From: Escherichia coli
GTDB lineage: Bacteria; Pseudomonadota; Gammaproteobacteria; Enterobacterales; Enterobacteriaceae
Length of the DNA stretch: 45,604 nt
Assembly: GCF_003334335.1 (NCBI RefSeq)
Contig: NZ_QOWQ01000036.1
Strand: one strand, 5' to 3'
Of the stretch, positions 8,100 through 45,604 are shown one piece after another. The notes below the pieces were generated by a model. The model ran no database searches. It was not told where the DNA came from and saw only the letters and a list, made by a program, of their open reading frames with translations. Positions within the stretch are counted from its first letter, which is position 1. Each line of letters opens with the position of its first letter. The translations under genes and the position numbers were made by a program.

Positions 8100-8114
8100 T
8101 TGACGACTCCTGTC

Positions 8115-22435: not shown

Positions 22436-22613
22436 CGTGATCCCTTAAGCATCTTTTTTATGCTTACTTCGCCGTGGATACTACCACGCACAGTGATGTG
22501 CGTGCCGGGGTTCACTTGCGAGCTCTTGTCTACGTAGTGGCTCGCGAAGGAACCTTTAAAAACTGTCTTAGTGTCAGGGGCAGTTTTTAAAGATTTCCTG
22601 CATTTCTTTGTTA

Positions 22614-22733
22614 CGCCTGATGCGCTGCGCTTATCAGGCCTACGGGTAATGACTTGTAGGCCGGATAAGGCGTTCACGCCGCATCCGGCACTGGTTGCCT
22701 GATGCGACGCTTGCGCGTCTTATCAGGCCTACG
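22614..22733. repeat. REP cluster between sdhB and sucA
   Basis: Three REP-consensus copies in alternating orientation ending 2 nt before the sdhB stop. Confidence 0.8.
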
Positions 22734-22735
22734 GT

Positions 22736-23452
22736 TTACGCATTACGTTGCAACAACATCGACTTGATATGGCCGATGGCGCGCGTCGGGTTCAGCCCCT
22801 TCGGACATACACTGACGCAGTTCATGATGCTGTGACAGCGGAATACGCTGAATGCATCACTCAAACCGTCGAGGCGGCTGTCAGTCTCGGTATCACGGCT
22901 ATCAATCAGGAAACGATATGCCGCTAACAAGCCTGCCGGGCCGATAAACTTATCGGGATTCCACCAGAAAGACGGACAAGAGGTTGAACAACATGCGCAG
23001 AGAATACATTCATACAGCCCGTCGAGTTTTTCGCGCTGCTCTGGCATCTGTAAATGCTCGCGAGCTGGCGGATTTTGTCCATTATTCAACAGGTAAGGCT
23101 TAATTTTCTCATATTGCGCATAGAATTGTCCCATGTCTACCACCAAATCGCGGATCACCGGTAAACCTGGCAGCGGGCGAATCACAATCTTCTTGCCCGG
23201 CTGGTTGAGTGCCGAAATCGGGGTAATACAGGCCAGACCATTCTTGCCGTTCATGTTCAGACCGTCGGAACCGCACACACCTTCACGGCAGGAGCGGCGG
23301 AACGACAGGCTGGGATCTTTCTCTTTTAGCTGGATAAGCGCATCCAGCAGCATCATGTCGCGACCTTCATCCGCTTCCAGGGTGTAATCCTGCATACGCG
23401 GAGCATCATCAACATCCGGGTTATAGCGATAAATTGAAAACTCGAGTCTCAT
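22736..23452 (-). CDS. sdhB: Succinate dehydrogenase iron-sulfur subunit
   Basis: 238 aa with Cys clusters for 2Fe-2S/4Fe-4S/3Fe-4S centres. Confidence 0.96.
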   Translation of the reverse strand: MRLEFSIYRYNPDVDDAPRMQDYTLEADEGRDMMLLDALIQLKEKDPSLSFRRSCREGVCGSDGLNMNGKNGLACITPISALNQPGKKIVIRPLPGLPVIRDLVVDMGQFYAQYEKIKPYLLNNGQNPPAREHLQMPEQREKLDGLYECILCACCSTSCPSFWWNPDKFIGPAGLLAAYRFLIDSRDTETDSRLDGLSDAFSVFRCHSIMNCVSVCPKGLNPTRAIGHIKSMLLQRNA

Positions 23453-23467
23453 TTTCCTGTCTCCGCA

Positions 23468-25234: not shown

Positions 25235-25581
25235 CACACACCCCACACCACAACGAATCCATAAATCACGTAAACCACCAGTGCAACGACAATCACCAGT
25301 TGCAGCATCAGGCGCAAAGCCAGCGGTTTAACGTAGTCGGTCAACACCTGCCACATGCCGATCCAGGCATGGATCAAGATAGAAAACAGCGCCAGCAGGG
25401 TGAACACTTTGGTGAACGCAGAGGCGAAGAAACCGATCCAGACTTCATATGTCAGCTCGCCACTGGTAGCGAAAAAACCGACCATATAAATGATGTAGAG
25501 CGTCAGGACGATAGCGGTAGCGCGAACGAGGATGAAATCATGTACGCCATTGCGTCCTAATGCGGAGGCGTTGCTTACCAT
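25234..25581 (-). CDS. sdhD: Succinate dehydrogenase membrane anchor subunit
   Basis: 115-aa hydrophobic protein, overlaps sdhA start. Confidence 0.95.
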
Positions 25582-25964
25582 ACGAGGACTCCTGCGAGAA
25601 GTGAAAGCACGACAGTAATAACAAAGGAGATTTTGGCGGAGCGTTTACCCGCTTCGAATGTTTCTTCCAGATAGCCAAAATCCATCATCATGTGGCGAAT
25701 ACCTACGACGACGTGATACGCCAGAGCGGTAAGGATGCCCCACATGATAAATTTGACGAAGAAGCTGCCCATAATCGCGGAAGCTTGCTCGAAACCTTCA
25801 GGGGAAGAGAGGCTGGTACCCAGAAGCCACAGCAGGATGCCCACTGCAACAAAGGTGATCACACCGGAAACGCGATGGAGAATGGACGCTATCGCCGTGA
25901 TGGGGAACCGGATGGTCTGTAGGTCCAGATTAACAGGTCTTTGTTTTTTCACATTTCTTATCAT
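25575..25964 (-). CDS. sdhC: Succinate dehydrogenase cytochrome b556 subunit
   Basis: ORF track gives 134 aa; start placed at [11 protein letters not shown] (129 aa). Confidence 0.93.
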
Positions 25965-26672
25965 GAATAACGCCCACATGCTGTTCTTATTATTCCCTGG
26001 GGACTACGGGCACAGAGGTTAACTTTCTGTTACCTGGAGACGTCGGGATTTCCTTCCTCCGGTCTGCTTGCGGGTCAGACAGCGTCCTTTCTATAACTGC
26101 GCGTCATGCAAAACACTGCTTCCAGATGCGAAAACGACACGTTACAACGCTGGGTGGCTCGGGATTGCAGGGTGTTCCGGAGACCTGGCGGCAGTATAGG
26201 CTGTTCACAAAATCATTACAATTAACCTACATATAGTTTGTCGGGTTTTATCCTGAACAGTGATCCAGGTCACGATAACAACATTTATTTAATTTTTAAT
26301 CATCTAATTTGACAATCATTCAACAAAGTTGTTACAAACATTACCAGGAAAAGCATATAATGCGTAAAAGTTATGAAGTCGGTATTTCACCTAAGATTAA
26401 CTTATGTAACAGTGTGGAAGTATTGACCAATTCATTCGGGACAGTTATTAGTGGTAGACAAGTTTAATAATTCGGATTGCTAAGTACTTGATTCGCCATT
26501 TATTCGTCATCAATGGATCCTTTACCTGCAAGCGCCCAGAGCTCTGTACCCAGGTTTTCCCCTCTTTCACAGAGCGGCGAGCCAAATAAAAAACGGGTAA
26601 AGCCAGGTTGATGTGCGAAGGCAAATTTAAGTTCCGGCAGTCTTACGCAATAAGGCGCTAAGGAGACCTTAA
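25965..26672. promoter_or_regulatory. Divergent gltA / sdhCDAB promoter and leader region
   Basis: 708-bp non-coding region between divergently oriented gltA and sdhC; this region is known to carry catabolite/ArcA-regulated promoters and the sRNA-targeted sdhC leader. Individual sites not mapped. Confidence 0.6.
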
Positions 26673-27956
26673 ATGGCTGATACAAAAGCAAAACTCACCC
26701 TCAACGGGGATACAGCTGTTGAACTGGATGTGCTGAAAGGCACGCTGGGTCAAGATGTTATTGATATCCGTACTCTCGGTTCAAAAGGTGTGTTCACCTT
26801 TGACCCAGGCTTCACTTCAACCGCATCCTGCGAATCTAAAATTACTTTTATTGATGGTGATGAAGGTATTTTGCTGCACCGCGGTTTCCCGATCGATCAG
26901 CTGGCGACCGATTCTAACTACCTGGAAGTTTGTTACATCCTGCTGAATGGTGAAAAACCGACTCAGGAACAGTATGACGAATTTAAAACTACGGTGACCC
27001 GTCATACCATGATCCACGAGCAGATTACCCGTCTGTTCCATGCTTTCCGTCGCGACTCGCATCCAATGGCAGTCATGTGTGGTATTACCGGCGCGCTGGC
27101 GGCGTTCTATCACGACTCGCTGGATGTTAACAATCCTCGTCACCGTGAAATTGCCGCGTTCCGCCTGCTGTCGAAAATGCCGACCATGGCCGCGATGTGT
27201 TACAAGTATTCCATTGGTCAGCCATTTGTTTACCCGCGCAACGATCTCTCCTACGCCGGTAACTTCCTGAATATGATGTTCTCCACGCCGTGCGAACCGT
27301 ATGAAGTTAATCCGATTCTGGAACGTGCTATGGACCGTATTCTGATCCTGCACGCTGACCATGAACAGAACGCCTCTACCTCCACCGTGCGTACCGCTGG
27401 CTCTTCGGGTGCGAACCCGTTTGCCTGTATCGCAGCAGGTATTGCTTCACTGTGGGGACCTGCGCACGGCGGTGCTAACGAAGCGGCGCTGAAAATGCTG
27501 GAAGAAATCAGCTCCGTTAAACACATTCCGGAATTTGTTCGTCGTGCGAAAGACAAAAATGATTCTTTCCGCCTGATGGGCTTCGGTCACCGCGTGTACA
27601 AAAATTACGACCCGCGCGCCACCGTAATGCGTGAAACCTGCCATGAAGTGCTGAAAGAGCTGGGCACGAAGGATGACCTGCTGGAAGTGGCTATGGAGCT
27701 GGAAAACATCGCGCTGAACGACCCGTACTTTATCGAGAAGAAACTGTACCCGAACGTCGATTTCTACTCTGGTATCATCCTGAAAGCGATGGGTATTCCG
27801 TCTTCCATGTTCACCGTCATTTTCGCAATGGCACGTACCGTTGGCTGGATCGCCCACTGGAGCGAAATGCACAGTGACGGTATGAAGATTGCCCGTCCGC
27901 GTCAGCTGTATACAGGATATGAAAAACGCGACTTTAAAAGCGATATCAAGCGTTAA
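26673..27956 (+). CDS. gltA: Citrate synthase (type II)
   Basis: 427 aa with the conserved citrate synthase active-site region (GFGHRVYK). Confidence 0.97.
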
Positions 27957-27986
27957 TGGTTGATTGCTAAGTTGTAAATATTTTAA

Positions 27987-28016
27987 CCCGCCGTTCATAT
28001 GGCGGGTTGATTTTTA
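27987..28016 (+). terminator. Intrinsic terminator of gltA
   Basis: cccgcc-gttcatat-ggcggg stem-loop followed by ttgatttttat. Confidence 0.85.
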
Positions 28017-28345
28017 TATGCCTAAACACAAAAAATTGTAAAAATAAAATCCATTAACAGACCTATATAGATATTTAAAAAGAATAGAACAGCTCAAATT
28101 ATCAGCAACCCAATACTTTCAATTAAAAACTTCATGGTAGTCGCATTTATAACCCTATGAAAATGACGTCTATCTATACCCCCCTATATTTTATTCATCA
28201 TACAACAAATTCATGATACCAATACTTTAGTTTTGCATTTAATAAAACTAACAATATTTTTAAGCAAAACTAAAAACTAGCAATAATCAAATACGATATT
28301 CTGGCGTAGCTATACCCCTATTCTATATCCTTAAAGGACTCTGTT

Positions 28346-28912
28346 ATGTTTAAAGGACAAAAAACATTGGCCGCACTGGCCGTATCTCTGCTGTTCACTG
28401 CACCTGTTTATGCTGCTGATGAAGGTTCTGGCGAAATTCACTTTAAGGGGGAGGTTATTGAAGCACCTTGTGAAATTCATCCAGAAGATATTGATAAAAA
28501 CATAGATCTTGGACAAGTCACGACAACCCATATAAACCGGGAGCATCATAGCAATAAAGTGGCCGTCGACATTCGCTTGATCAACTGTGATCTGCCTGCT
28601 TCTGACAACGGTAGCGGAATGCCGGTATCCAAAGTTGGCGTAACCTTCGATAGCACGGCTAAGACAACTGGTGCTACGCCTTTGTTGAGCAACACCAGTG
28701 CAGGCGAAGCAACTGGGGTCGGTGTACGACTGATGGACAAAAATGACGGTAACATCGTATTAGGTTCAGCCGCGCCAGATCTTGACCTGGATGCAAGCTC
28801 ATCAGAACAGACGCTGAACTTTTTCGCCTGGATGGAACAAATTGATAATGCAGTCGATGTCACGGCAGGTGAAGTAACCGCTAACGCAACCTACGTGCTG
28901 GATTATAAATAA
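28346..28912 (+). CDS. ybgD: Fimbrial subunit (chaperone-usher pathway)
   Basis: 188 aa; signal peptide (AAVYA), Cys pair, C-terminal beta-strand typical of pilins. Confidence 0.85.
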   Translation: MFKGQKTLAALAVSLLFTAPVYAADEGSGEIHFKGEVIEAPCEIHPEDIDKNIDLGQVTTTHINREHHSNKVAVDIRLINCDLPASDNGSGMPVSKVGVTFDSTAKTTGATPLLSNTSAGEATGVGVRLMDKNDGNIVLGSAAPDLDLDASSSEQTLNFFAWMEQIDNAVDVTAGEVTANATYVLDYK

Positions 28913-28962
28913 GTATTATTTTGGCGGCATCATCGCCGCCTTTCATAAAATATTTATCAGGT

Positions 28963-31419
28963 ATGGACACCGTGAATATTTATCGACTCTCTTTTGTATC
29001 CTGCCTGGTCATGGCGATGCCTTGCGCAATGGCGGTCGAATTCAATCTGAATGTTCTCGATAAATCAATGCGCGACCGCATTGATATTTCATTATTAAAG
29101 GAAAAAGGAGTCATTGCTCCCGGTGAATATTTTGTTAGCGTTGCGGTGAATAACAACAAAATCAGTAATGGGCAAAAAATTAACTGGCAAAAAAAGGGTG
29201 ACAAAACCATTCCATGCATCAATGATTCACTGGTCGATAAATTTGGTTTAAAACCAGATATCCGTCAGTCCTTGCCACAGATAGATCGGTGTATTGATTT
29301 CAGTTCCCGACCTGAAATGCTCTTCAATTTCGATCAAGCCAATCAGCAACTGAATATTAGTATTCCGCAAGCCTGGCTGGCGTGGCACTCAGAAAACTGG
29401 GCTCCCCCCTCTACATGGAAAGAAGGTGTTGCCGGTGTCCTGATGGATTACAACTTGTTTGCCAGCAGCTACCGCCCACAGGACGGCAGCAGCAGCACTA
29501 ACCTGAATGCCTACGGTACCGCCGGAATTAACGCCGGGGCATGGCGCTTACGCAGTGATTACCAGCTTAATAAGACCGATAGCGAAGATAACCATGACCA
29601 GTCAGGCGGAATATCGCGCACCTATCTTTTTCGTCCATTACCGCAATTAGGCTCTAAGTTAACCCTCGGCGAAACCGATTTCAGTTCCAATATTTTCGAT
29701 GGTTTTTCTTATACCGGCGCGGCACTGGCGAGTGACGATCGAATGTTACCGTGGGAGCTGCGTGGCTACGCCCCACAAATTAGCGGTATTGCACAGACCA
29801 ATGCCACGGTGACGATCAGTCAATCAGGCCGCGTCATTTACCAGAAAAAAGTCCCGCCAGGCCCGTTTATTATTGATGACCTCAATCAGTCTGTTCAGGG
29901 CACGCTGGATGTCAAAGTGACGGAAGAAGATGGTCGGGTGAACAATTTCCAGGTTTCGGCAGCATCGACGCCCTTCCTGACTCGCCAGGGACAGGTTCGC
30001 TATAAATTGGCCGCGGGTCAGCCACGGCCTTCCATGTCACATCAAACTGAAAATGAAACCTTTTTTAGCAATGAAGTTTCCTGGGGGATGCTCTCAAACA
30101 CCTCGCTGTACGGCGGCCTGCTGATTTCTGATGATGACTACCATTCTGCCGCAATGGGTATCGGGCAAAATATGCTGTGGCTTGGCGCACTGTCCTTTGA
30201 TGTCACCTGGGCCAGTAGCCATTTTGATACTCAGCAGGACGAGCGGGGCTTAAGCTACCGTTTTAATTACAGCAAACAAGTGGATGCCACCAACAGCACG
30301 ATTTCGCTCGCCGCTTATCGCTTCTCAGATCGTCATTTTCACAGCTACGCCAACTATCTGGATCACAAATACAACGACAGCGATGCGCAGGACGAAAAAC
30401 AGACGATCAGCTTATCCGTGGGCCAACCGATTACCCCACTAAACCTCAATCTTTACGCCAACCTGCTACATCAAACCTGGTGGAATGCAGACGCCTCCAC
30501 GACCGCCAACATCACAGCAGGTTTTAATGTTGATATTGGTGACTGGAGAGATATCTCGATTTCGACGTCATTCAATACGACCCACTACGAAGATAAAGAT
30601 CGCGACAACCAGATTTATCTGTCGATTTCGCTCCCCTTCGGTAACGGTGGTCGGGTTGGCTATGACATGCAAAACAGTAGCCACAGCACCATACACCGCA
30701 TGTCGTGGAACGATACGCTGGATGAACGTAATAGCTGGGGCATGTCTGCCGGACTGCAATCCGATCGTCCGGACAATGGAGCCCAGGTGAGCGGTAACTA
30801 TCAGCACCTGAGTTCAGCGGGTGAGTGGGATATTTCTGGTACCTATGCCGCCAGTGATTACAGTTCCGTCAGCAGCAGCTGGAGCGGTTCTTTCACCGCA
30901 ACCCAATATGGTGCAGCATTTCATCGCCGCAGCTCCACCAATGAACCACGCCTGATGGTCAGCACCGATGGCGTGGCAGATATTCCGGTTCAGGGCAATC
31001 TCGACTACACCAACCATTTTGGCATTGCGGTGGTGCCGTTGATTTCCAGTTACCAGCCTTCCACCGTGGCGGTGAACATGAATGACTTACCCGACGGCGT
31101 AACAGTTGCAGAAAACGTCATCAAGGAAACATGGATTGAAGGCGCGATAGGTTACAAATCACTGGCTTCCCGTTCCGGTAAAGACGTTAACGTCATCATA
31201 CGCAACGCCAGCGGTCAGTTCCCTCCCCTCGGTGCGGATATCCGCCAGGATGACAGCGGCATTAGCGTGGGTATGGTTGGCGAGGAAGGACATGCCTGGT
31301 TAAGCGGTGTCGCTGAAAATCAACTGTTTACCGTGGTCTGGGGTGAGCAAAGCTGCATTATTCATCTGCCAGAACGTCTGGAAGACACGACCAAACGCCT
31401 GATTTTACCTTGTCATTAA
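28963..31419 (+). CDS. ybgQ: Outer-membrane fimbrial usher (FimD/PapC family)
   Basis: Large ORF with signal peptide ending CAMA; start at ATG 28963 or GTG 28972 uncertain. Confidence 0.88.
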   Translation: MDTVNIYRLSFVSCLVMAMPCAMAVEFNLNVLDKSMRDRIDISLLKEKGVIAPGEYFVSVAVNNNKISNGQKINWQKKGDKTIPCINDSLVDKFGLKPDIRQSLPQIDRCIDFSSRPEMLFNFDQANQQLNISIPQAWLAWHSENWAPPSTWKEGVAGVLMDYNLFASSYRPQDGSSSTNLNAYGTAGINAGAWRLRSDYQLNKTDSEDNHDQSGGISRTYLFRPLPQLGSKLTLGETDFSSNIFDGFSYTGAALASDDRMLPWELRGYAPQISGIAQTNATVTISQSGRVIYQKKVPPGPFIIDDLNQSVQGTLDVKVTEEDGRVNNFQVSAASTPFLTRQGQVRYKLAAGQPRPSMSHQTENETFFSNEVSWGMLSNTSLYGGLLISDDDYHSAAMGIGQNMLWLGALSFDVTWASSHFDTQQDERGLSYRFNYSKQVDATNSTISLAAYRFSDRHFHSYANYLDHKYNDSDAQDEKQTISLSVGQPITPLNLNLYANLLHQTWWNADASTTANITAGFNVDIGDWRDISISTSFNTTHYEDKDRDNQIYLSISLPFGNGGRVGYDMQNSSHSTIHRMSWNDTLDERNSWGMSAGLQSDRPDNGAQVSGNYQHLSSAGEWDISGTYAASDYSSVSSSWSGSFTATQYGAAFHRRSSTNEPRLMVSTDGVADIPVQGNLDYTNHFGIAVVPLISSYQPSTVAVNMNDLPDGVTVAENVIKETWIEGAIGYKSLASRSGKDVNVIIRNASGQFPPLGADIRQDDSGISVGMVGEEGHAWLSGVAENQLFTVVWGEQSCIIHLPERLEDTTKRLILPCH

Positions 31420-31433
31420 TTAAGGAAAAGAGA

Positions 31434-32162
31434 ATGACATTTATTAAAGGATTACCCTTAATGTTGTTAACCATCAGCTTGGGTTGCAATGCTGCGGTGC
31501 AACCCGATCGCACACGCATTGTGTTTAACGCCAATGACAAAGCCACCAGCCTGCGTATCGAAAACCAAAGTGACAAACTGCCTTATCTTGCTTATTCCTG
31601 GATAGAAAATGAAAAAGGGGAGAAAAGCGATGCTCTTCTGGTCGCTTTGCCCCCTATTCAACGTCTGGAACCGAAAGCGACATCGCAGGTGCGGGTTGTG
31701 AAACAAGCCTCAACCACACAATTACCTGGCGATCGCGAAACGCTATTTTTCTACAATATGCGCGAAATTCCTCCCGCTCCGGATAAAAGCAGCGACCATG
31801 CGATACTTCAGGTCGCTATTCAAAGTCGTATTAAATTGTTCTGGCGACCGGCTGCATTACGCAAGAAAGCAGGAGAAAAGGTCGAACTGCAGTTACAGGT
31901 CAGCCAGCAGGGCAACCAACTGACACTGAAAAATCCTACCGCGTATTATCTGACCATTGCCTATCTGGGGAGAAATGAAAAAGGCGTTCTCCCAGGCTTC
32001 AAAACCGTGATGGTTGCACCTTTTAGTACGGTCAACACAAACACCGGAAGTTATAGCGGCAGCCAGTTTTATCTCGGTTACATGGATGATTACGGCGCAT
32101 TACGCATGACGACGCTCAACTGCAGCGGACAATGCCGTTTACAAGCAGTGGAGGCGAAATGA
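31434..32162 (+). CDS. ybgP: Periplasmic fimbrial chaperone (PapD-like)
   Basis: Start placed at MTFIKGLPL (242 aa); two-domain immunoglobulin-like chaperone signature. Confidence 0.88.
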
Positions 32163-33220
32163 GTGCTGGCAAGGGATTGTTGCTCGTCATCTGCCTGTTA
32201 TTTCTGCCGTTGAAGTCTGCAATGGCGCTGAACTGCTATTTTGGTACATCTGGTGGCGCAGTAGAAAAATCAGAAGCGATTCAACCGTTTGCTGTACCAG
32301 GCAATGCCAAACCCGGTGATAAGATCTGGGAATCTGACGATATTAAAATTCCCGTCTATTGTGACAACAATACCAACGGCAACTTTGAAAGCGAGCATGT
32401 CTACGCCTGGGTAAACCCCTATCCGGGGGTGCAGGATCGTTATTATCAACTCGGCGTGACATACAACGGTGTCGATTACGATGCCAGTCTGGGAAAAAGT
32501 CGCATCGACACTAACCAGTGTATCGACAGTAAGAACATTGATATTTATACCCCTGAGCAGATCATCGCGATGGGATGGCAGAACAAAATTTGCTCGGGCG
32601 ATCCCGCTAATATTCATATGTCGCGTACCTTTCTCGCTCGCATGCGGTTATACGTCAAAATACGAGAAATGCCGCCGCATGATTATCAAAGTACGCTTAG
32701 CGACTATATCGTCGTGCAATTTGACGGTGCCGGTAGCGTTAACGAAGACCCTACTGCCCAAAACCTGAAATATCATATTACTGGTCTGGAAAACATTCGC
32801 GTGCTGGATTGCAGCGTCAATTTTTCCATTTCACCGGAAACACAGGTGATTGATTTTGGTAAATTTAATTTGCTGGATATACGTCGCCACACAATGTCGA
32901 AAACGTTCAGTATTAAAACGACCAAGAGCCAAAACGATCAATGCACCGACGGATTTAAAGTCAGTTCCTCCTTTTATACCGAAGAAACGTTGGTTGAAGA
33001 AGATAAAGCATTGTTGATTGGTAATGGTCTGAAGCTACGTTTACTGGATGAAAACGCCTCGCCTTATACCTTCAATAAATATGCTGAATACGCCGATTTC
33101 ACCAGTGACATGTTGGTCTACGAAAAAACCTATACGGCTGAACTTTCGTCCATTCCAGGCACCCCCATCGAGGCTGGCCCCTTCGATACAGTGGTGCTTT
33201 TTAAGATTAACTATAACTGA
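32159..33220 (+). CDS. ybgO: Large fimbrial subunit / putative tip adhesin
   Basis: Start at MSAGKGLLL (353 aa), ATGA overlap with ybgP stop; size suggests a two-domain adhesin. Confidence 0.8.
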
Positions 33221-33228
33221 TTTACCAT

Positions 33229-33262
33229 GATGCCCTTTGCCGCCGGAAAGGGCATCTCTTTC
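33229..33262 (+). terminator. Putative intrinsic terminator after the fimbrial operon
   Basis: gatgcccttt-gccgccgg-aaagggcatc hairpin followed by a short T-containing tract. Confidence 0.5.
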
Positions 33263-33371
33263 AGAAAATTGCTGATTTTCCCCTTTTCCTTGATTGCTGT
33301 TATTTTTTCCTGGCCCAGCTTTCTTTATGCTGTATCGATACACCAAAGAGAAAATAATGAGGGAGCGAAGG

Positions 33372-34418
33372 ATGCCAGTTTTGCAGTGGGGAATGTTATG
33401 TGTGCTATCACTTCTCCTTTCTATTGGTTTCCTCGCGGTACATCTCCCGGCGGCGCTATTACTTGGGCCGATGATCGCCGGGATCATCTTTAGTATGCGC
33501 GGAATTACTCTGCAACTTCCCCGCTCTGCTTTTCTCGCCGCCCAGGCCATTCTTGGCTGCATGATTGCGCAAAACCTCACTGGTTCGATTCTCACCACCC
33601 TGGCCGTCAACTGGCCGATCGTGCTTGCAATTTTACTGGTAACGCTGCTTTCCAGCGCCATTGTGGGTTGGTTATTGGTGCGCTATAGCTCATTGCCTGG
33701 AAATACCGGTGCCTGGGGCTCCTCTCCTGGCGGCGCGGCGGCAATGGTCGCTATGGCGCAAGATTACGGCGCAGATATTCGCCTGGTGGCGTTTATGCAA
33801 TATCTGCGAGTGCTGTTCGTCGCGGGGGCCGCTGTTCTGGTCACCCGCATGATGCTGGGCGATAACGCTGAAGCGGTTAACCAGCATATCGTCTGGTTCC
33901 CGCCAGTGAGCATTAATCTCCTGCTTACTATTTTGCTCGCGGTCGTTGCCGGTACAGTGGGATGCCTGCTGCGTCTTCCTTCCGGCACGATGCTCATCCC
34001 GATGCTGGCGGGCGCAGTGCTCCAGTCTGGTCAGCTCATCACCATCGAACTACCGGAATGGCTGCTGGCGATGGCGTATATGGCAATTGGCTGGCGGATT
34101 GGTCTTGGTTTCGATAAACAAATCTTACTGCGGGCACTACGCCCGCTACCGCAAATCCTGCTGTCGATTTTTGCTCTGCTGGCTATTTGTGCGGGTATGG
34201 CGTGGGGGCTGACCCGGTTTATGCACATTGATTTTATGACTGCCTACCTCGCCACCAGCCCCGGCGGGCTTGATACCGTGGCGGTCATCGCCGCAGGGAG
34301 CAATGCCGATATGGCGCTCATTATGGCGATGCAAACCCTACGCCTGTTCAGTATTTTGCTGACAGGGCCTGCCATTGCGCGGTTTATTTCAACCTATGCG
34401 CCGAAGCGGTCGGCCTAG
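33372..34418 (+). CDS. abrB: AbrB-family membrane protein (putative regulator/transporter)
   Basis: ORF track gives 374 aa; start placed at MPVLQWGML (348 aa); polytopic membrane protein. Confidence 0.85.
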
Positions 34419-35206
34419 TGCTGGCAGCCAGGGCACCAGTAAAACGGGCGAGATGACAGCGTGGTTTTCTCAATGATGCTGCCACAACGTTCGCACGGTT
34501 CGCCATCTCGATGAAAAACCTTAAAGCGAAACAGCGCCCCATGATGCTTATTCTCATCCACCTGCCCCCGCGTAGCGTAGGAAAATCGAGGAATCTCCAG
34601 TAACGCGTGTGCGAGTGCATCCAGTTGCGCCGCATTGAGATCTTTCGCTTTATGATTTCCAGTCAACCCAACCTGCCAGAGGATCTCCACCCGCAAATAA
34701 TTGCCAAGCCCAGCCAGAAACGCCTGATCGAGCAGTAATCCAGCAAACTGACGGTTACGAAAGCGCGGCGACAATAATCGTTCTTTCACCACCTCCGGCG
34801 TCAGATTCGGATCCAGCACATCGGGACCAACGCGTTGTAAAAACGGATGCGTGGTCAGTTGTTCCGGGGTCAACATCTCAATATCCGAGGCGCTATAAAG
34901 CAGAATGGTTTTGTCAGCCGTTTGCAGTTTTACCCGCAATACTCGCGTGGTCTGCGGCTCTTCGCCGGTATCAACCACGCGCCAGACGCCGTAAAGCTGA
35001 TTATGGCTGTAGAGCGTTAAGTCGTTGGAAAAATGAGTTAACAACGCCTTACCACGCGTTTCCACATGGGTAACGTGTTGACCGATAAGTTGTGATTGAT
35101 AAGGTTTTAACTGCGGGAAGGCAAACCAGACATCAGTTAGTGGTTTGCCTTTGATCGCCGCCTCCAGGTTATCCGCTGCACGGCGGATCTCCGGGCCTTC
35201 AGGCAT
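34415..35206 (-). CDS. nei: Endonuclease VIII (DNA glycosylase/AP lyase)
   Basis: 263 aa; N-terminal MPEGPEI catalytic Pro, C-terminal zinc finger (CxxC...CxxC). Confidence 0.95.
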
Positions 35207-35241
35207 GGTGATATCCTTTTTTCATTCTTTATTAATCGGGG

Positions 35242-35976
35242 TTATGCTGCGACAACAATCCCCTTTTCGGCAAATGCAGAGCGTAGTCGGCGGGCGAACG
35301 CCAGTGCGTGCTCGCCGTCGCCATGCAGGCAGACCGTTTGCGCCGCGACCGTTGCCCATTCGCCGGTGATACTTTTGACTCTGCCGTGTTGCACCATCTC
35401 CAGCGTTTGCGCCAGCGCCTGTTCTTCGTTTTCAATCAACGCGCCTGACTGGCTTCGCGGCACCAGCGAGCCGTCAGCCTGATAACCGCGATCGGCAAAC
35501 ACTTCCTCGCGCGTTGTCAGACCATATTGCTTGCCTGCACGAATCAGCTCGCTTCCCGCCAGCCCGACGAGAATCAATGCTGGATCGCAAGCGTATACCG
35601 CTCTGGCGATGGCGTCTGCCAGTTGTGCTTCTTTCGCCGCCTGGTTGTACAACATGCCGTGCGGTTTGACATGACGCATTACGCCGCCTTGCGCACGGGC
35701 AATCGTTGCCAGCGCGCCAATTTGATACAGCGTCTGGGCGTAAACGGTTTCTGGCGGCAGCTGCATGGCGCTGCGACCAAAATTTTCCCTGTCGGGAAAA
35801 CTCGGGTGAGCGCCAATCGCGACACCATTTTTTATTGCTTCACGCACGCAAGCCTGCATGATTTGCGCATCGCCTGCATGAAATCCACAGGCAATATTGG
35901 CAGAGGAAACCAGCGTTAATAGCTCTGCGTCGCTGGCGCAGCCTTCGCCCAGATCGGCGTTCAGGTCAATTTTCAT
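35242..35976 (-). CDS. pxpA: 5-oxoprolinase subunit A (LamB/YcsF family)
   Basis: 244 aa, last gene of ybgI-pxpBCA cluster. Confidence 0.9.
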
Positions 35977-36898
35977 TGTGCAGCCGCCACGCTAATTGTT
36001 CAAAATAACGTTGCTGATCTTGCCGTGCTTTTAGTGCCTCTTCCAGTGAACACTGGACAAAATGAATCGGCTGACCGAGCGGAATTTGCGCCAGATGGTA
36101 CATATCAGCCTCAATGATACAGGCAATACGCGGGTAACCACCGGTGGTCTGTGCGTCGTTCATCAACACAATCGGCTGCCCGTTATGTGGCACCTGCACC
36201 ACGCCCGGTAACAAACCGTGAGATAACAGTTCGCGATCGGTGGTGCGTTTTAAAATTTGCCCCTGTAAGCGATAGCCCATGCGGTTACTTTGCGAGCTAA
36301 GCTGCCAGGGCGAACGCCAGAATGCATCCTGCGAGGCGCGATCGAACTCATGATATTCCGGCCCCGGCAAGGCGCGAATGCGGTTGCCCCACAGCAGCTG
36401 TTTAACGCCCTGCGCTTCCATAGAATCACGCTTCGATTTGCCAATCGGGAGTCGGTCACCATCCTTCAGTAAACGGCCTTCCAGCCCGCCAATCCCCACT
36501 TTGAGATCGGTGCTGCATGAGCCCATTACCGGCGGAACATCAATACCACCCGCGACCGCCAGATAACTGCGCATCCCGTGCTGCGGGCGTTTAAGCGTTA
36601 AACGCTGGCCTGCTTTCATCGGCAATCGCCAGCCGGTCCAGACGGCATTATCATCCAGCCGCGCTTCGCAACCGGCACCCGTCAGAGCAAACCACCCATC
36701 AGTTTCGAACTCAACAGTTAACTGACCGAGCGTGATCTCCAGCGCGGGGGCATTGGCGTCATTACCCACCAGTAGGTTAGCAATGCGTAACGCGGGCATA
36801 TCCAGTGCGCCGCAGTGGCTGATACCCGACTGGCGAAAACCGTGACGACCGCCATCCTGCACAGTGGTATACATGCCCGCACGAATAATCTTCAGCAT
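35966..36898 (-). CDS. pxpC: 5-oxoprolinase subunit C (allophanate hydrolase subunit 2-like)
   Basis: 310 aa; overlaps pxpA start by 11 nt. Confidence 0.9.
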
Positions 36899-37548
36899 AC
36901 TCCCTCCTTCTGCGGTACAAAGCGCACGCTGTCTCCCGGACGTAATAAGATGGGTTCGTCACGCGCCGGATCAAACAGGCTGAGTGAGGTATGACCAATC
37001 AACTGCCAGCCACCCGGCGTTGCCAGCGGATAAACACCAGTCTGCGGCCCGCCGATCCCGACAGAACCTGCCGGAACGAGTAAGCGCGGTTCAGCGCGCC
37101 GTGGCGTGTGTAGTTGTTCCGGCAAACTCCCGAGATACGGGAAGCCCGGTTGAAAACCTAAAAACCAGACCACGTATTCCACGGAGGAGTGCAATTCAAC
37201 AACCTGTTTTTCGCTCAACCCGCAATGCGCCGCGACCACCGCCAAATCCGGTCCGCCTGCACCACCGTAAACCACCGGAATTTCAATAAAGCGAGACTCC
37301 GGCTCCAGCGCCTCGCTCTCCTCCCACCAGCGTTGCAAACGCTCTATGGCATCCAGCGCCAGCGACTCAGGATTACGCAAAATCACCGTGATATTGTTCA
37401 TGCCGGGAATGGCTTCAACCACATTCGGCATATCCACCAGACGCTGCGCCAGTCGCCAGATCCGTTTCTGGCTAGCCAGCGTCACCGGCGGTTCCAGTTC
37501 CAGCACTACCGCCGTTTCACCTATCAGATAACAACGCGCTCGTTGCAC
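36892..37548 (-). CDS. pxpB: 5-oxoprolinase subunit B (allophanate hydrolase subunit 1-like)
   Basis: 218 aa; overlaps pxpC start. Confidence 0.9.
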
Positions 37549-37570
37549 TTTCGATCCCTCTGATTATTCG

Positions 37571-38314
37571 TTATGCAGGATTAGGAATATCAATAAAGGT
37601 CACATCAAGATCGGTATTTTCATTCAGCCACTCGCTCAATGCGCGAATACCACCACGTTCAGTGGCATGGTGACCTGCAGCATAAAAATGCAATCCCTGC
37701 TCGCGGGCTGAATGAATGGTCTGTTCAGAAACTTCGCCAGTAATAAAAGCATCCACGCCAAAACGCGCGGCGCTATCGATAAAACTTTGCCCGCCGCCCG
37801 TGCACCAGGCGACGCGCTGGACCACCTCAGGTCCGGTATCGCCACACCATAACGGCTTACGTCCCAGACGCGCTTCAATCCAGGAAGCCAGCTCCAGTCC
37901 CGGCACAGGCATGGTCAGTTCGCCCCACGGCACCAACGGCTCAATTTCGCCCATGACCGTGATCCCCAGTAACGCCGCCAGCTGTGCGTTATTGCCCAGC
38001 TCAGGATGTGCGTCAAGCGGCAAATGCCAGCCATACAGGTTGATATCATTCGCCAGCAACGTTTTTAAACGGTTACGCTTCATTCCGCGAATGACCGGAG
38101 ACTCTCCTTTCCAGAAGTAGCCATGATGCACAATGACCGCATCCGCGCCCAGACGCACTGCCTCATCGAGCAAAGCCTGGCTGGCGGTGACACCGGTAAC
38201 AATTTTTTGCACCGTCTCTTTGCCTTCCACCTGCAAACCATTCGGCGCGTAATCACTAATCGCCGCGCTGTTCAGTTTTTCGTTAATCAGTTGTTCCAGT
38301 TCGGTGTTTTTCAT
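37571..38314 (-). CDS. ybgI: Nif3-family metal-binding protein (GTP cyclohydrolase 1 type 2 homolog)
   Basis: 247 aa, His-rich metal-binding motifs typical of Nif3/YbgI. Confidence 0.9.
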   Translation of the reverse strand: MKNTELEQLINEKLNSAAISDYAPNGLQVEGKETVQKIVTGVTASQALLDEAVRLGADAVIVHHGYFWKGESPVIRGMKRNRLKTLLANDINLYGWHLPLDAHPELGNNAQLAALLGITVMGEIEPLVPWGELTMPVPGLELASWIEARLGRKPLWCGDTGPEVVQRVAWCTGGGQSFIDSAARFGVDAFITGEVSEQTIHSAREQGLHFYAAGHHATERGGIRALSEWLNENTDLDVTFIDIPNPA

Positions 38315-38401: not shown

Positions 38402-40066
<1,665 letters not shown>

Positions 40067-40080
40067 TAGGCCAGCACCGA

Positions 40081-40190
40081 TGCCTGATGCGACGCTTGAC
40101 GCGTCTTATCAGGCCTACGTATTTCCTGCAATTTATTGAATTTGCACAAATTTGTAGGCTGGATAAGGCGTTCACGCCGCATCCGGCATC
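40081..40190. repeat. REP pair between dtpD and phr
   Basis: Two inverted REP-consensus copies (gcctgatgcgacgc... / ...gccgcatccggc). Confidence 0.8.
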
Positions 40191-40215
40191 TGGGCTCGAT
40201 TGCCTGACGCGTCTG

Positions 40216-41634
40216 TTATTTCCCCTTCCGCGCCGCCTCATACGCTGCCAACGTTTGTACTCTCGCTTCTTTGTGCTCGACTATCGGTTGCGGATAATCC
40301 AGCGTCACACCTGCTTTCTGCGCCCACTTCCACGGCTCATGCACCACTTTCCCTGGCACATCGCGCAGTTCCGGTAGCCACTGGCGGATAAACTCGCCCT
40401 CATGATCAAATTTCTCGCCCTGGGTTGTCGGGTTGAAAATACGAAAATACGGCGCTGCATCGGTTCCGGTTGAAGCGGCCCACTGCCAGCCACCGTTATT
40501 GGCTGCCAAATCACCATCAATCAGCTGCGACATGAAATATCGCTCGCCTTCGCGCCAGTCGATCAATAAATCTTTCACCAGAAAACTGGCTGTAATCATC
40601 CGTAGCCTGTTATGCATCCAGCCAGTGCTGTTAAGCTGACGCATAGCGGCATCAACAATCGGGTATCCCGTTTTGCCTTCCTGCCAGGCCTGTAAATGTG
40701 CGGGATTGCTCTGCCACTGTACACGATCCGTCCAGGCAATAAATGGACGATGTTTACACAACGAGGGGTGATACGTTATCAGGTGACGGTAAAACTCGCG
40801 CCAGATCAGCTCATTAAGCCAGACACTACCGGCCCCACCGTCCAGCGCCTGCGGCTGTTCAGCCAACAAGCGATGCAAGCACTGGCGAGGCGATAACCCG
40901 CCCGTTGCCAGGCTGGCCGACAAACGGCTGGTGCCTTCCACTGCCGGAAAATCTCGTTGTTGCTCATATTCTCCGGCACCGTTCTGGCAAAACTGGCGTA
41001 ATTGCGCAATCGCCGCTTTTTCTTCCACCGGAAAATGCGCAGTATCGAAAGACTGACGAGGATAATTCAGCGTAATGGATGGCGAGGGCTCTATCGATCC
41101 GCTACTACGAACTTTTGGCGCAGCGACGCACTCCGGCATCCCTTCCCGCAGCCGTTTCAGCCAGGCATTCTTAAAAGGCGTAAAGACTTTGTACATCTCG
41201 TGATTACCGGTCATCACCGCGCCAGGCGGCAGGATCACGCTGTCATCAAATCCTTCACACACCACGTTACGCAGCGCTCTTTCAACTTCCACATCCCGCG
41301 CCCGCTCATTCACTTCATACTGATAGTTATAAAACAGGTGGGTAACGCTGTTTTCCGCGCACACCTGTTTAACTATTTCGACACTGGCGACAAAGTCATC
41401 CACTTCACGGAACAATAAAGGAATACCTTTTTCCGCAAGCGCTATTTGTAGCCCATTCAGTTGAGCATTGATAAGTTCAGCCTGACGCGGCGACATGTTA
41501 TGCGTCGCCCACTGGCGTGGTGTAGCGATATACAACGCCAGCACGCGTGCAGACGAATTGCGGCAGGCGGCAGCCAGTGCGAGATTATCGTGCAGACGTA
41601 AATCCTGGCGAAACCAGACCAGATGGGTAGTCAT
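40216..41634 (-). CDS. phr: Deoxyribodipyrimidine photolyase
   Basis: 472 aa; MTTHLVWFRQDLRLHDNLAL N-terminus, FAD-binding C-terminal domain. Confidence 0.95.
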   Translation of the reverse strand: MTTHLVWFRQDLRLHDNLALAAACRNSSARVLALYIATPRQWATHNMSPRQAELINAQLNGLQIALAEKGIPLLFREVDDFVASVEIVKQVCAENSVTHLFYNYQYEVNERARDVEVERALRNVVCEGFDDSVILPPGAVMTGNHEMYKVFTPFKNAWLKRLREGMPECVAAPKVRSSGSIEPSPSITLNYPRQSFDTAHFPVEEKAAIAQLRQFCQNGAGEYEQQRDFPAVEGTSRLSASLATGGLSPRQCLHRLLAEQPQALDGGAGSVWLNELIWREFYRHLITYHPSLCKHRPFIAWTDRVQWQSNPAHLQAWQEGKTGYPIVDAAMRQLNSTGWMHNRLRMITASFLVKDLLIDWREGERYFMSQLIDGDLAANNGGWQWAASTGTDAAPYFRIFNPTTQGEKFDHEGEFIRQWLPELRDVPGKVVHEPWKWAQKAGVTLDYPQPIVEHKEARVQTLAAYEAARKGK

Positions 41635-42140
41635 AAAACTCCTGAATGGCGCAAGTTAATCACACGCGGCCAAAGTTCGAAATAACGCTGCCCTGAAAGC
41701 CAGGCGTCAGGATAAAGCGCCATATAGTGTTTGATACGCATCAGCGGCGCAAGAAGTGGTTGCTCGCCACGGCGATAACTGTCGATAAGCGCAGCCAGCT
41801 GCTGGCGTTCTGTGGAATCAATATGCGGGCGAAAATAACCCTGAACGTGCATCAAAACATTGGTGTGATCGCGCGGGTTGGCGGGGTGAGAAAGCAAAAC
41901 AACTACGCGTTGGCGGTACTGGTTGTAATAGTCATCCAGATTTTGCCACTGGTGAATATCAGCCACGAACGGGCCAAGTTTGCGGTACTCCGGCTGAGAA
42001 TGCGCCAGAAAGACGAGTTTATAGCGGCTGTGATAATCGAGAAGCGCCCCGCGCGTTAAGCCATGTTCTTTCAGTCGATGTAACTCATGAAGGGCAAAGA
42101 TACGGATTAGGGTGCTGTCATCAAATCGTTGTAGATTCAT
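41631..42140 (-). CDS. ybgA: DUF1722-family protein co-transcribed with phr
   Basis: 169 aa; overlaps phr start by 4 nt. Confidence 0.88.
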   Translation of the reverse strand: MNLQRFDDSTLIRIFALHELHRLKEHGLTRGALLDYHSRYKLVFLAHSQPEYRKLGPFVADIHQWQNLDDYYNQYRQRVVVLLSHPANPRDHTNVLMHVQGYFRPHIDSTERQQLAALIDSYRRGEQPLLAPLMRIKHYMALYPDAWLSGQRYFELWPRVINLRHSGVL

Positions 42141-42287
42141 TACTGCTCCTGAGCGGTTTACAGGAGTAAGTGTAGACGTTGAGAAATGATATTTGTGAAG
42201 TTAATCCTGTTGTAGCAGGACAAATTTACGAAAGCCTGCTCCCCGCAAGGACTGACGTCAGGTAGTTTCTAACCATAGCTGCCCTTT

Positions 42288-43049
42288 CTATTCAAACGTG
42301 AAATCAATAAGTTCATCAGGGACATCGCAAACAATATGAAGACGGATTTCTTCTCTGCCGTGACTCTTTTCACTCATTGCGTAACTGTCATGCTCTGGAT
42401 TATTTAATTCTTTCAGCGGAAATTTTTCCTCAAAGGCTTTATTTAGCCGCCCCTGGTTTCCTTTTACCGCGAATAAATAATCACCTCCCTGTTTTTGTAT
42501 CTTCTCTGCAATATCTTTCTGGCAACCCATCGCATCAGTTGTGATGATTTTTCCTTTAATATCCAGCATGTTAAGAAGTTCAGGGATAGCTGTGATCTCA
42601 TTGGATTTCTTATCCGTCTTGATCTGCCCGATGACCAGACTGTGCATTGTTGAGAACGCACTAATGACATGAATCGCTCCCCTGCGGCGACTCTTGTCAT
42701 AAGAGTGCCGGAGCGTTTTTCCATCAATTGCAATGACGTCTTTATCATTTGATGAATGGCAATCACGCATCCAGTTAATAAAGCACTCGTGAAATTTTGC
42801 AGGACTGATACAGGATACAACTCTGGCAATAGTATCGTGAACAGGAATACCATTTTCAAAATCACCATATTGCTTCAAGAAATCGAGATGTGTTTCCCCG
42901 AAATCCTCTATATCTTCCCAACTTTCTGCACCAGAAATAACGGCAAAAATAGTCAATAGTAGGATGCCTGACAATTTATGCTCTACTTTCCAGGCTTATC
43001 TGTAATCGGGAATAATAGAAATATGTTCCATCAATTTTTTAAGTTCCAT
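42288..43049 (-). pseudogene. ybfD: H-repeat-associated transposase remnant, copy 1 (ybfD-like), in-frame TAA at codon 18 and 3'-truncated
   Basis: [17 protein letters not shown]-stop(42996-42998)[10 protein letters not shown]... then 228 codons; ends ...[12 protein letters not shown] where full-length ORF-H continues W-K-G-L. Confidence 0.75.
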
Positions 43050-43174
43050 TTGTTCACCTTATTTATGTAAGGAGTATTTGATCATGTATAAGCTATGAAA
43101 AACAGCTTTAGGTAATAAGGAATATCTCAATTTTTAAACATAAAATGCGAATTATTTAGTACAAAAAAGTAGCG

Positions 43175-43429
43175 TTACGTGATCTTTCCCTGGGATACAA
43201 CTCTGGCAATGGTATCGTGAACAGGAATACCATTTTCAAAATCACCATATTGCTTCAAAAAATCGAGATGTGTTTCCCCGAAATCCTCTATATCTTCCCA
43301 ACCTTCTGCACCAGAAATAACGGCACAAATAGTCAACAGTAGAATATCTGACAATTTATGCACCACTTTCCAGGCTTGTCTGTAATCGGGTGTAATAGAA
43401 ATATGTTCCATCAATTTTTTAAGTTCCAT
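43175..43429 (-). pseudogene. H-repeat transposase N-terminal fragment, copy 2 (84 codons)
   Basis: [22 protein letters not shown]...IARVVS then out-of-family QGKIT-stop created by the repeat junction. Confidence 0.8.
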
Positions 43430-43554
43430 TTGTTCACCTTATTTATGTAAGGAGTATTTGATCATGTATAAGCTATGAAAAACAGCTTTAGGTAATAAGG
43501 AATATCTCAATTTTTAAACATAAAATGCGAATTATTTAGTACAAAAAAGTAGCG

Positions 43555-43809
43555 TTACGTGATCTTTCCCTGGGATACAACTCTGGCAATGGTATCGTGA
43601 ACAGGAATACCATTTTCAAAATCACCATATTGCTTCAAAAAATCGAGATGTGTTTCCCCAAAATCCTCTATATCTTCCCAACCTTCTGCACCAGAAATAA
43701 CGGCACAAATAGTCAACAGTAGAATATCCGATAATTTATGTTCCACTTTCCAGGTTTGTCTGTAATCGGGGATAATAGAAATATGTTCCATCAATTTTTT
43801 AAGTTCCAT
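43555..43809 (-). pseudogene. H-repeat transposase N-terminal fragment, copy 3 (84 codons)
   Basis: Near-identical to copy 2 (I13, T19, E23 variants); same junction-derived C-terminus. Confidence 0.8.
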
Positions 43810-43951
43810 TTTGTTCTCCTTAATTAGGTAAGGAGTATTTGATCATGTATAAGCAATAAAAAACAGCTTCAGGTAATAAGGAATATCTCAATTTTTAAAC
43901 ATAAAATGCGAATTATTTAGTGCAAAAAGTGAACTTTTGATGATCTTTCCC

Positions 43952-44315
43952 TGGCCGTTGACTCGATTGCCGTAGCTCGAACGCAAGCACTCTTATCATT
44001 CAATGCCATATTGTTCAAAATATTAAAAACATTATCTTCGCATTTTTTGCAAATTTATATTTGCCCGAGTATAAATGCTCCGATATCTCTACGGATATAA
44101 TTTTTGTCAGTGCAGAATTCAATTGCCAATCTAACAGCGTCTTGCCCCCCTCTTAACTGTAATACTCTGGCAGATGAAATCCTTTTCAAGGAATTGCGAT
44201 CATCAAGTAAGCGAAATAATTCATCATCATTTAGTTTCTTACATTTATTATATAAACCATACTCTTTACTTGCCTTTCTTTTCTGGTATGTATTTGACAT
44301 TGCAGGAACCTCCAT
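43952..44315 (-). pseudogene. yibA-like HEAT-repeat (PBS-lyase type) gene remnant
   Basis: MSNTYQKRKASKEYGLYN...AFILGQI then TAA (44055-44057); homology continues in frame (ICKKCEDNVFNILNNMALNDKSACVRATAIESTA) to ~43953 where the H-rpt terminus begins. Confidence 0.7.
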
Positions 44316-44509
44316 AAAGGCTATCTTTTTCTATCGTTTGACTGTCTGGAGTCCTCCACCTACTCTGCCATCAGCGCACACGATGTTTGATTATCCTTAC
44401 ATACTTATTTTCCGTGGCCAAAATTCAGAATTCTCCCATCATTTTTGCCTATTTCTATAATAAAAACCCCACCAGCAATTTGGTCTGAGTGAATGGTACC
44501 TTCAACAAC

Positions 44510-44752
44510 TCAACTTGTTGTTAACTCAGTGATTTCGTATGGTTTTTCTTCTTCTGCGGCATCCTGTCCATAACGATTCTTAACATATATCTCAGCTAAT
44601 TCCAATGCTATAGCTTTATTTTTAACCAAATTTCTAACGGTATATTTACCTTCACTTTCATACTTGCGCATTATTTTAATATTATTATTACACTGCGCCC
44701 ATGTGTTGTATGTAAAAACAAACAAAGATACAATGACACAGTTCCTAAACAA
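44510..44752 (-). CDS. Small secreted protein, candidate Rhs immunity protein
   Basis: 80-aa ORF 6 nt downstream of the Rhs tip stop; N-terminal signal-peptide-like segment (MFRNCVIVSLFVFTYNTWA); AT-rich like the tip. Confidence 0.5.
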   Translation of the reverse strand: MFRNCVIVSLFVFTYNTWAQCNNNIKIMRKYESEGKYTVRNLVKNKAIALELAEIYVKNRYGQDAAEEEKPYEITELTTS

Positions 44753-44758
44753 TATTTT

Positions 44759-45604
44759 TTACATATTACCATGAACTCTGCAGACATTAGGTAATCCTTT
44801 TCTGTTTGTTATTTCCTTCCCGTGGTTATCTATTGCTTTAAAATTACCACTGGGCGTACCTAAATAAAATGACTTGATATTGTTATCTTTACTTTTAACT
44901 ATTTTCTCATCTTTACCTGAAAATATTTCGTCCCAATATTCTCCATGACTATCTGCACCATGAGTATGATAAGCTGATACTTTCTCAGTACCATTAGGGC
45001 AAGGGCTATTGAATGGATATGATCCTTTTCTTTCTCCTCGGTTAGGTGCTGTTGAGAAATATCTGCCACTATTATCCTTACATATTAAACCAGCGAACTC
45101 TTTATCTTCGCAAATAGATTGGCTATTTATTTTATTTAAGGCGCCATATGCGGTGCTATCTATAGAATCAAATTTATCTGGACCTATCATAGCGGATAGT
45201 GTGCCGCAAAGACCATTAGTACATGCCCCCGATTTTGCATCCTCCCACATAGATAAACCCAGGGGGTCGATGTCTGATATCGGATTCAATTGATATCCAT
45301 ACAGGTTCCATCCCCCCTTCAGTCCAATCGGATCCTGAGTGATATATCGCCCCTGCAGCGGGTCATAATAGCGGTGGCGGTTGTAATACAGGCCGGACTC
45401 CTCATCATACTGCTGCCCCGGCAGCCGGATAAGCTGCTGCAGCTGATGCGGGTTCTCTTCATTCAGCAGGTTGCCCCATTCATCATATTCTGCGCACCAC
45501 GCTGTTGCCCCTTCCGTGCTGATGAGCGCCAGCGGCAGGCCGCGATGGTCGCAGTGGTACAGGTGGATTTTTCGCGCCGGCGTGTACACCGGGTCCATCT
45601 GGTT
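44759..45604 (-). CDS. Rhs protein C-terminal part: end of conserved core plus ~164-aa variable tip (putative toxin); 5' end outside window
   Basis: Core-end signature ...[39 protein letters not shown]; abrupt GC-rich to AT-rich switch at ~45254; Cys/His-rich tip; reading frame runs to the window edge. Confidence 0.85.

Follow-up and report, generated by a model that had tools for sequence, protein, structure and literature searches.

Organization of the locus

The 45,604 nucleotides of Escherichia coli DNA analyzed here, referred to as the window, carried the downstream margin of the RhsC locus of E. coli, which was recognized from the annotation of K-12 MG1655. In this annotation, the RhsC locus had three H-repeat genes, namely ybfQ (84 aa, an 'inactive transposase'), ybfL (a pseudogene), and ybfD (b0706, 253 aa, an 'H repeat-associated putative transposase'). 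The window possessed three H-repeat units as well (copies 1 to 3), which followed each other with a 380-bp spacing over positions 42813-43954, according to Tandem Repeats Finder and a repeat finder, and differed from one another by 4-19%. The anatomy of the array was established with blastn and MAFFT against the K-12 ISEc1 and the K-12 RhsC array. The blastn reference was the yhhI element from the K-12 RhsB locus (L002 7234-8525), and positions within the element are given in an IS numbering from 1 to 1292 that had one additional base on the left compared with the 1,291-bp element. The features of the locus are collected in Table 1. Farther from the array, several complete genomes of E. coli matched positions 20000-38000 of the window at 100% identity.

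Table 1. Genes, H-repeat copies and lesions at the RhsC edge of the window
Feature	Position	Strand	Basis or remark
dtpD	38585-40066	+	flanking gene
phr	40216-41634	-	flanking gene
ybgA	41631-42140	-	conserved chromosomal gene; 75 bp from copy 1, whose right end it anchors
Copy 1, defective ISEc1/H-repeat, ybfD allele, 978 bp	42216-43193	-	blastn, diagnostic-site mosaic
ORF-H remnant of copy 1, 253 codons + TAG, internal TAA at codon 18	42288-43049	-	reading, script, NF033564, Pfam
TAA at codon 18 of copy 1	42996-42998	-	CAA in ISEc1, copies 2 and 3, and K-12 ybfD
TAG at codon 254 of copy 1	42288-42290	-	TGG in full-length ORF-H
311-bp deletion junction of copy 1 (IS 914 joined to ~IS 1226)	42280-42283	-	script against ISEc1
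Retained right end of copy 1 (IS 1226-1292)	42216-42282	-	out-of-frame last ORF-H codons and degenerate right inverted repeat
Degenerate right inverted repeat of copy 1	42216-42233	-	comparison with ISEc1 ends
Copy 2, H-repeat 5' fragment, ybfQ-like	43193-43573	-	IS 1-382, 94.0% (blastn)
Copy 3, H-repeat 5' fragment	43573-43954	-	IS 1-382, 100% to the K-12 RhsB-locus ISEc1 (yhhI) (blastn)
RhsB-type module upstream of the array	43955-45604	-	99.85% identity to the K-12 RhsB locus
yrhC HEAT-repeat pseudogene	44055-44300	-	K-12 RhsB-locus match
yhhH, broken	44405-44787	-	presumed immunity gene after the RhsB-type toxin tip
Rhs C-terminal tip	44759 to window end	-	K-12 RhsB-locus match

A promoter scan of positions 42100-44100 gave promoter-like sites at a frequency that was not above that of shuffled sequence. 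Terminator-like hairpins in the same interval numbered four against 1.1 expected. When positions 40000-45604 were scanned with Rfam, there was no match in the H-repeat region, and the sole match was the ES036 (CssrF) sRNA, located between dtpD and phr at 40111-40153 on the minus strand with 75.1 bits (gathering score, 37.6).

Copies 2 and 3 and the RhsB-type module

Both copies 2 and 3 were short 5' fragments with intact 84-aa ORFs of the YbfQ type (43429-43175 and 43809-43555, respectively, on the minus strand). Each of these ORFs terminated at a TAA codon within the left end of the next copy. Copy 2 was a hybrid that was ybfL (C2)-type over IS 1-182 and ybfQ (C1)-type over IS 183-382, and this structure would fit an unequal exchange that duplicated a 380-bp unit. 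Taken together with copy 3, the upstream segment (45604-43573) aligned with positions 5583-7615 of the K-12 RhsB locus (L002) at 99.85% identity, with three differences in 2,033 bp (two substitutions and a single-base deletion). Relative to K-12, yhhH was inactivated twice, by an A7-to-A6 frameshift at 44761 and by a TGG-to-TGA change at 44510, and the third difference, at 45144, replaced Asp by Gly in the toxin tip.

The only unusual feature of the region, and a mild one, was the local three-copy array with its junction to the RhsB-type toxin module. None of the 5,426 complete E. coli genomes in the search had the junction between copies 3 and 2 at an identity of at least 99%, and MT102 was the only genome that covered at least 80% of window positions 41600-44800, which it did in three pieces. 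Similar to the window, this K-12 derivative had the RhsB module inside the RhsC locus. However, its module was joined via a yhhI/ybfD hybrid with another crossover point, indicating an independent transfer.

The absence of the copy 3/copy 2 junction from complete genomes, and the ease with which short-read assemblies miscount tandem 380-bp repeats, could suggest that the count of three units was an assembly artefact, in which case both stop codons of copy 1 would be unaffected. We regarded such an artefact as improbable since the units differed from each other enough to be placed by reads, copy 2 had a coherent hybrid structure, and MT102 independently provided a case of the RhsB module moved into the RhsC locus. 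A genuine three-unit array was therefore the preferred reading.

Copy 1 as a defective member of the ISAs1 family

Copy 1 was a member of the ISAs1 family by descent (ISEc1, the H-repeat of E. coli Rhs elements), with an incomplete PF01609 domain. The reference members of this family include ISAs1 of Aeromonas salmonicida and IS1358 of Vibrio cholerae. The membership was seen in the transposase model, in the nucleotide homology, and in the inverted repeats at both ends. Namely, when codon 18 was taken as Gln, the frame of copy 1 scored 292.6 bits (cut-off 70) against NF033564, the ISAs1 transposase model, over profile positions 1-220 of 314, compared with positions 1-314 of 314 for the full-length YhhI. 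The N-terminal PF13808 domain (DDE_Tnp_1_assoc) was complete in copy 1 (8-94) and in YhhI, and PF01609 (DDE_Tnp_1) was covered from model position 3 to 139 of 200 in copy 1 versus 3 to 200 in YhhI. On the other hand, copy 1 had neither an uninterrupted transposase ORF nor a complete predicted DDE triad, as an autonomous insertion sequence would, and neither a target-site duplication nor movement between sites was found for it. Writing in J Bacteriol in 1993, Zhao et al. reportedly gave H-rpt its name, described three defective copies at RhsC, and proposed separate histories for the components of Rhs elements. Our literature search for papers joining the ISAs1 family with the H-repeat found none.

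Direct reading and a script agreed with the earlier note on the frame of copy 1, which started at an ATG at 43049 on the minus strand, had TAA at codon 18 (42998-42996), and ran to DFTFE-TAG (42290-42288) followed by KGQ. At the site of this TAG, the full-length ORF-H (K-12 YhhI, 378 aa) had a tryptophan, within DFTFEWKGL. It had also been correctly read that codon 18 was CAA in copies 2 and 3 and that both had Asp in place of the Gly of copy 1, but these fragments were described as lying downstream, whereas both were located upstream of copy 1 relative to the reading frame.

The 3' end of the element turned out to be different from what the earlier note had claimed, namely that homology ended after the TAG codon and that the 3' third had been lost by truncation. 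The blastn match to the K-12 ISEc1 resumed immediately after this point. Positions 43193-42281 of copy 1 corresponded to IS 1-914 (95.4% nucleotide identity) and positions 42282-42216 to IS 1226-1292 (86.6%), so the actual lesion was an internal deletion of 311 bp (24% of the element), with the last 67 bp still present. The deletion started nine bases after the first base of the TAG codon. With the breakpoints marked by a slash, the ISEc1 sequence was AAAGGGC/TGAAG on the left and AAAAGC/AGCCATGG on the right, and the window had AAAGGGC/AGCTATGG, with a 2-nt GC microhomology at the junction. As 311 bp cannot be divided into whole codons, the retained 3' codons were out of frame. Even without the TAG, the shifted frame would close at a TGA located nine codons past codon 254, and the TAG was thus without functional weight.

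The deletion removed amino acids 257-360 of the 378-aa protein, including the HWHVENKLHW segment. With this segment, copy 1 probably lost the last of the three DDE residues, predicted to be Glu306; the assignment of the catalytic residues followed the motif positions IAID109GK, TTD172AMG, and HVE306NKLHW and what is general among IS4-like DDE transposases. At its left end, copy 1 had an inverted repeat, CAGGGAAAGATCA, that was identical to that of ISEc1. The right inverted repeat, CAGGACAAATTTACGAAA compared with CAGGGCAAGATTACGAAA in ISEc1, was degenerate but present, and it matched its own left repeat at 11 of 17 positions, as opposed to 14 of 18 in ISEc1. In summary of this comparison, copy 1 and the ISEc1 of K-12 (yhhI at RhsB) had in common the left end and the architecture of an N-terminal PF13808 followed by PF01609, but ISEc1 encoded an uninterrupted protein that matched the whole ISAs1 model, while copy 1 had two stops and a missing segment. 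That the transposase was non-functional, as previously proposed, was supported by these two in-frame stops, by the coverage of only 220 of the 314 NF033564 positions, and by the partial match to PF01609, and copy 1 was accordingly unable to encode a transposase. Judging from its sequence, it was reasonable to infer that the element was immobile.

Origin of the codon 18 stop

The K-12 ybfL and ybfD differed at 82 sites, which served as diagnostic positions. Copy 1 was of the ybfL type at 49 of the 50 diagnostic sites between IS 26 and 883 and of the ybfD type at every site from 906 on, which included the TAG, the deletion junction, and the diverged right end. Copy 1 was a hybrid with the 5' part of ybfL (H-rptC2) and the 3' part of ybfD (H-rptC3), and its crossover interval was located between IS 883 and 906. 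The ybfL features in this copy were the T of codon 18 (TAA), Gly28, Phe35, and the loss of one base ahead of the ATG. Compared over the initial 253 codons, copy 1 and the K-12 ybfL had two synonymous and zero nonsynonymous differences.

It had previously been proposed that copy 1 acquired point changes relative to its neighbours. However, TAA, Gly28, and Phe35 were not acquired in this genome but inherited with a ybfL haplotype, which recombination had introduced from another H-repeat lineage, diverged by roughly 5%. The TGG-to-TAG change was a true substitution.

The two K-12 genes resembled copy 1 in complementary ways. The K-12 ybfD (b0706, H-rptC3) had the same site 75 bp from ybgA, the 311-bp junction, the TAG at codon 254, and the diverged right end, but it was without the first 25 bp of the element, had CAA at codon 18, and carried its own 5' substitutions. 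In the window copy, by comparison, the left end was complete and the 5' sequence as far as position 883 was of the ybfL type. The K-12 ybfL (b0705, H-rptC2) shared the 5' 883 bp with copy 1 at the diagnostic sites described above, TAA included, but it was full length (1,291 bp), with TGG at codon 254 and an ISEc1-like right end.

Relative to the yhhI element, copy 1 had a dS of 0.12 and a dN/dS of 0.11, and the dN/dS for the K-12 ybfD was 0.22. These low ratios indicated that most of the differences between the H-repeat lineages arose under purifying selection. The H-repeat copies were thus diverged isoforms that were later inactivated by a few discrete lesions, in keeping with the separate histories that Zhao et al. 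reportedly proposed for Rhs components.

A laboratory case of a similar exchange has been reported for BM28, a heat-evolved K-12 derivative, where a deletion of 'nearly 1300 bp' took away part of ybfL and part of ybfD, giving rise to a fusion gene (PMC10044804). The likeness to copy 1 lay in the size of the ybfL-ybfD deletion (~1,300 bp) and in the single hybrid gene that it left. The BM28 deletion, however, arose in an evolution experiment, and its product was called an in-frame fusion (PMC10044804).

Distribution across E. coli

The 71-nt segment containing the TAA was found, at an identity of at least 99%, in 2,658 records from the search of 5,426 complete E. coli genomes, where it was located in ybfL or ybfD. 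The TAA was an old, common allele and was not private to this genome. The same 2,658 records ruled out that the TAA came from a sequencing error.

The locus was fetched from 15 other complete genomes of different lineages, and 14 of them had a ybgA-adjacent copy with the same 311-bp junction. The exception was 13E0725, where a full-length ybfL-type copy was nearest to ybgA. The ybgA-adjacent copy carried the TAA in E. coli C, EC11, B7A, CFS3313, 13E0767, 90-9280, and RM9131, and in all seven of these fetched TAA carriers PGAP had given ybfD the note 'internal stop; incomplete; missing C-terminus'. Codon 18 of ybfD was CAA in K-12, MT102, YZ_2_2, DA33137, and D10. The TAG at codon 254 was more widespread, being present in 11 of the 12 tabulated ybgA-adjacent deleted copies from other strains, including the K-12 ybfD. 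The remaining strain, DA33137, had TGG at codon 254 together with the same deletion junction, and therefore the TAG postdated the deletion. The DA33137 ybfD (L014 1500-2478) also had a more ISEc1-like right end and a different stop at codon 118, the latter showing independent decay of the same relic. The ybfD allele of D10 had frameshifts. Programmed recoding at the TAA was considered as well and rejected, since the frame downstream of it was without the catalytic segment and other alleles had unrelated lesions.

In an evenly spaced sample of 60 of the 5,369 matching records, approximately 13 were of the window type and 14 of the K-12 type. The window-type allele was defined here by full left-end coverage at 97.3-99.8% identity, and 5 of the 13 were checked by sequence. 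The boundary between the ybfL-type and ybfD-type parts was not the same in all strains. The window copy and E. coli C switched at 883-906, B7A, 13E0767, 90-9280, and RM9131 at 654-658, and EC11 at 658-751, and the mosaic of CFS3313 was patchy. These different switch points pointed to several independent exchanges or conversions.

A close relative of copy 1 and its surroundings was found in E. coli C (NZ_CP020543; relatives WG5 and NCTC122), which was 99.9% identical to the window over the 1,401 bp of ybfQ-ybfD-ybgA and whose ybfD had the crossover interval and both stops in common with the window copy. On the other hand, E. coli C had two H-repeat units rather than three, its ybfD was two nucleotides off the window copy, and upstream it had ybfC and an RhsC-type orphan in place of the RhsB-type module.

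The full-length copy nearest to ybgA in 13E0725 (L016 1508-3215) also had the TAA, and its distance to ybgA was ~416 bp versus the usual 75. The deleted ybfD copy was not detected in this genome by blastn. An arrangement similar to that of 13E0725 was present in about 4 of the 60 sampled records.

The distribution was informative for the question of whether copy 1 might still be a non-autonomous element that moves with the transposase of other, full-length ISEc1 copies of the genome acting in trans. Its intact left inverted repeat and recognizable right end would allow this, and E. coli genomes had H-repeat homology in a median of 5-6 places. Nevertheless, it was very improbable that such mobilization took place, since the right inverted repeat was degenerate, each of the 14 other genomes with the deleted copy had it beside ybgA and with the same junction, and no target-site duplication was visible when it was looked for around the array and around the K-12 yhhI copy. 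Moreover, the part of PMC3032704 that cites Zhao 1993 (J Bacteriol 175:2799, PMID 8387990) states that transposition of H-rpt has not been observed.

Another possibility was that the truncated products had been domesticated and either regulated through DNA binding or inhibited the transposition of ISEc1. The candidates for such a role were the 84-aa YbfQ-type peptides of copies 2 and 3 and the product of a restart in copy 1 from the TTG at 42974. The ORFs of the peptides were intact and spanned most of PF13808, the K-12 ybfD was an uninterrupted ORF of 253 codons, and dN/dS was low. However, the TAA was present in the ybfD of roughly a fifth of the sampled genomes, and other alleles had different lesions, such as the codon 118 stop of DA33137 and the frameshifts of D10. 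In addition, ybfQ was marked as a pseudogene by PGAP and had an internal stop in CFS3313, and the low dN/dS was explained by divergence that was older than the inactivation. We therefore saw very little chance of domestication, and an inert relic was the preferred reading.

Finally, it was hardly credible that copy 1 was an ordinary H-repeat that had gained the TAA, Gly, and TAG by its own mutations in place and had lost its 3' third from the end, because, even though copy 1 was unlike copies 2 and 3 at these codons when the window was considered alone and DA33137 identified TGG-to-TAG as a genuine substitution, the whole 5' haplotype with the TAA was that of the K-12 ybfL and recurred in the 2,658 records, the right-terminal 67 bp were still there, and the dN/dS of 0.11 relative to ISEc1 placed most of the divergence under purifying selection in a separate IS lineage.

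Proposed history of the array

Considering these observations, we found it highly likely that the segment 43193-42216 on the minus strand was a dead copy of ISEc1 with three lesions, which originated as a ybfL x ybfD recombinant and remained as an inert relic without a transposase. The oldest lesion would be the 311-bp internal deletion, probably formed by illegitimate recombination at the GC microhomology. The putative second lesion was the TGG-to-TAG substitution, 9 nt short of the junction. The TAA at codon 18 would have come last and was probably brought in from the neighbouring full-length pseudogene copy ybfL.

For this last step, we propose unequal homologous recombination between ybfL and ybfD in a K-12-type array, by which one repeat length (~1.3 kb) would be lost and the 5' part of ybfL, with TAA, Gly28, and Phe35, would be fused to the deletion junction and right end of ybfD. 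Based on parsimony and on the laboratory precedent, the K-12-type triple array was probably ancestral and the hybrid derived. For the allele of the window and E. coli C, a crossover in a single event was a priori unlikely because the site that it needed was the last 22 bp of ~890 bp of homology. The same pattern could also have been produced by gene conversion or from an ancestral state other than that of K-12.

In the lineage of the window, the putative events were the ybfL x ybfD deletion, the duplication of a 380-bp unit, and the replacement of the upstream region by sequence from the RhsB locus, with the right crossover of this replacement probably located within the H-repeat. We infer the order and details of these events from the present arrangement. 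If the relic had any role at all, it may have been to offer a patch of homology at which the Rhs locus could rearrange further.

Significance of the H-repeat relic

The finding itself was ordinary, since copy 1 belonged to an already known type of defective ISAs1-family element and its stops were old and widely shared. It represented the well-known ybfD relic, which most E. coli genomes carry beside ybgA. The double-stop allele had already been flagged as a pseudogene by NCBI PGAP in many genomes. Its importance for biology at large was little, and the outcomes of this analysis were mainly corrective. Namely, the 3' lesion was an internal deletion rather than a truncation, and the seemingly private mutations were a haplotype inherited through ybfL x ybfD recombination. 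With respect to annotation, the region was better labelled as a ybfD pseudogene (ISEc1 remnant) than as a gene.

At least three crossover points were observed among the strains, and therefore the tandem array was a recurrent substrate for recombination. Since the RhsB-type tip module joined the resident array of the RhsC locus inside H-repeat sequence, the array might conceivably serve as a right-hand homology arm that moves Rhs toxin/immunity tips between Rhs loci, although we considered this doubtful. If it were true and general, defective H-repeats would be retained as portable recombination sites for swapping polymorphic-toxin cassettes. The strain-specific three-unit array with its RhsB-type module provided an illustration of H-repeat-mediated rearrangement at Rhs loci.
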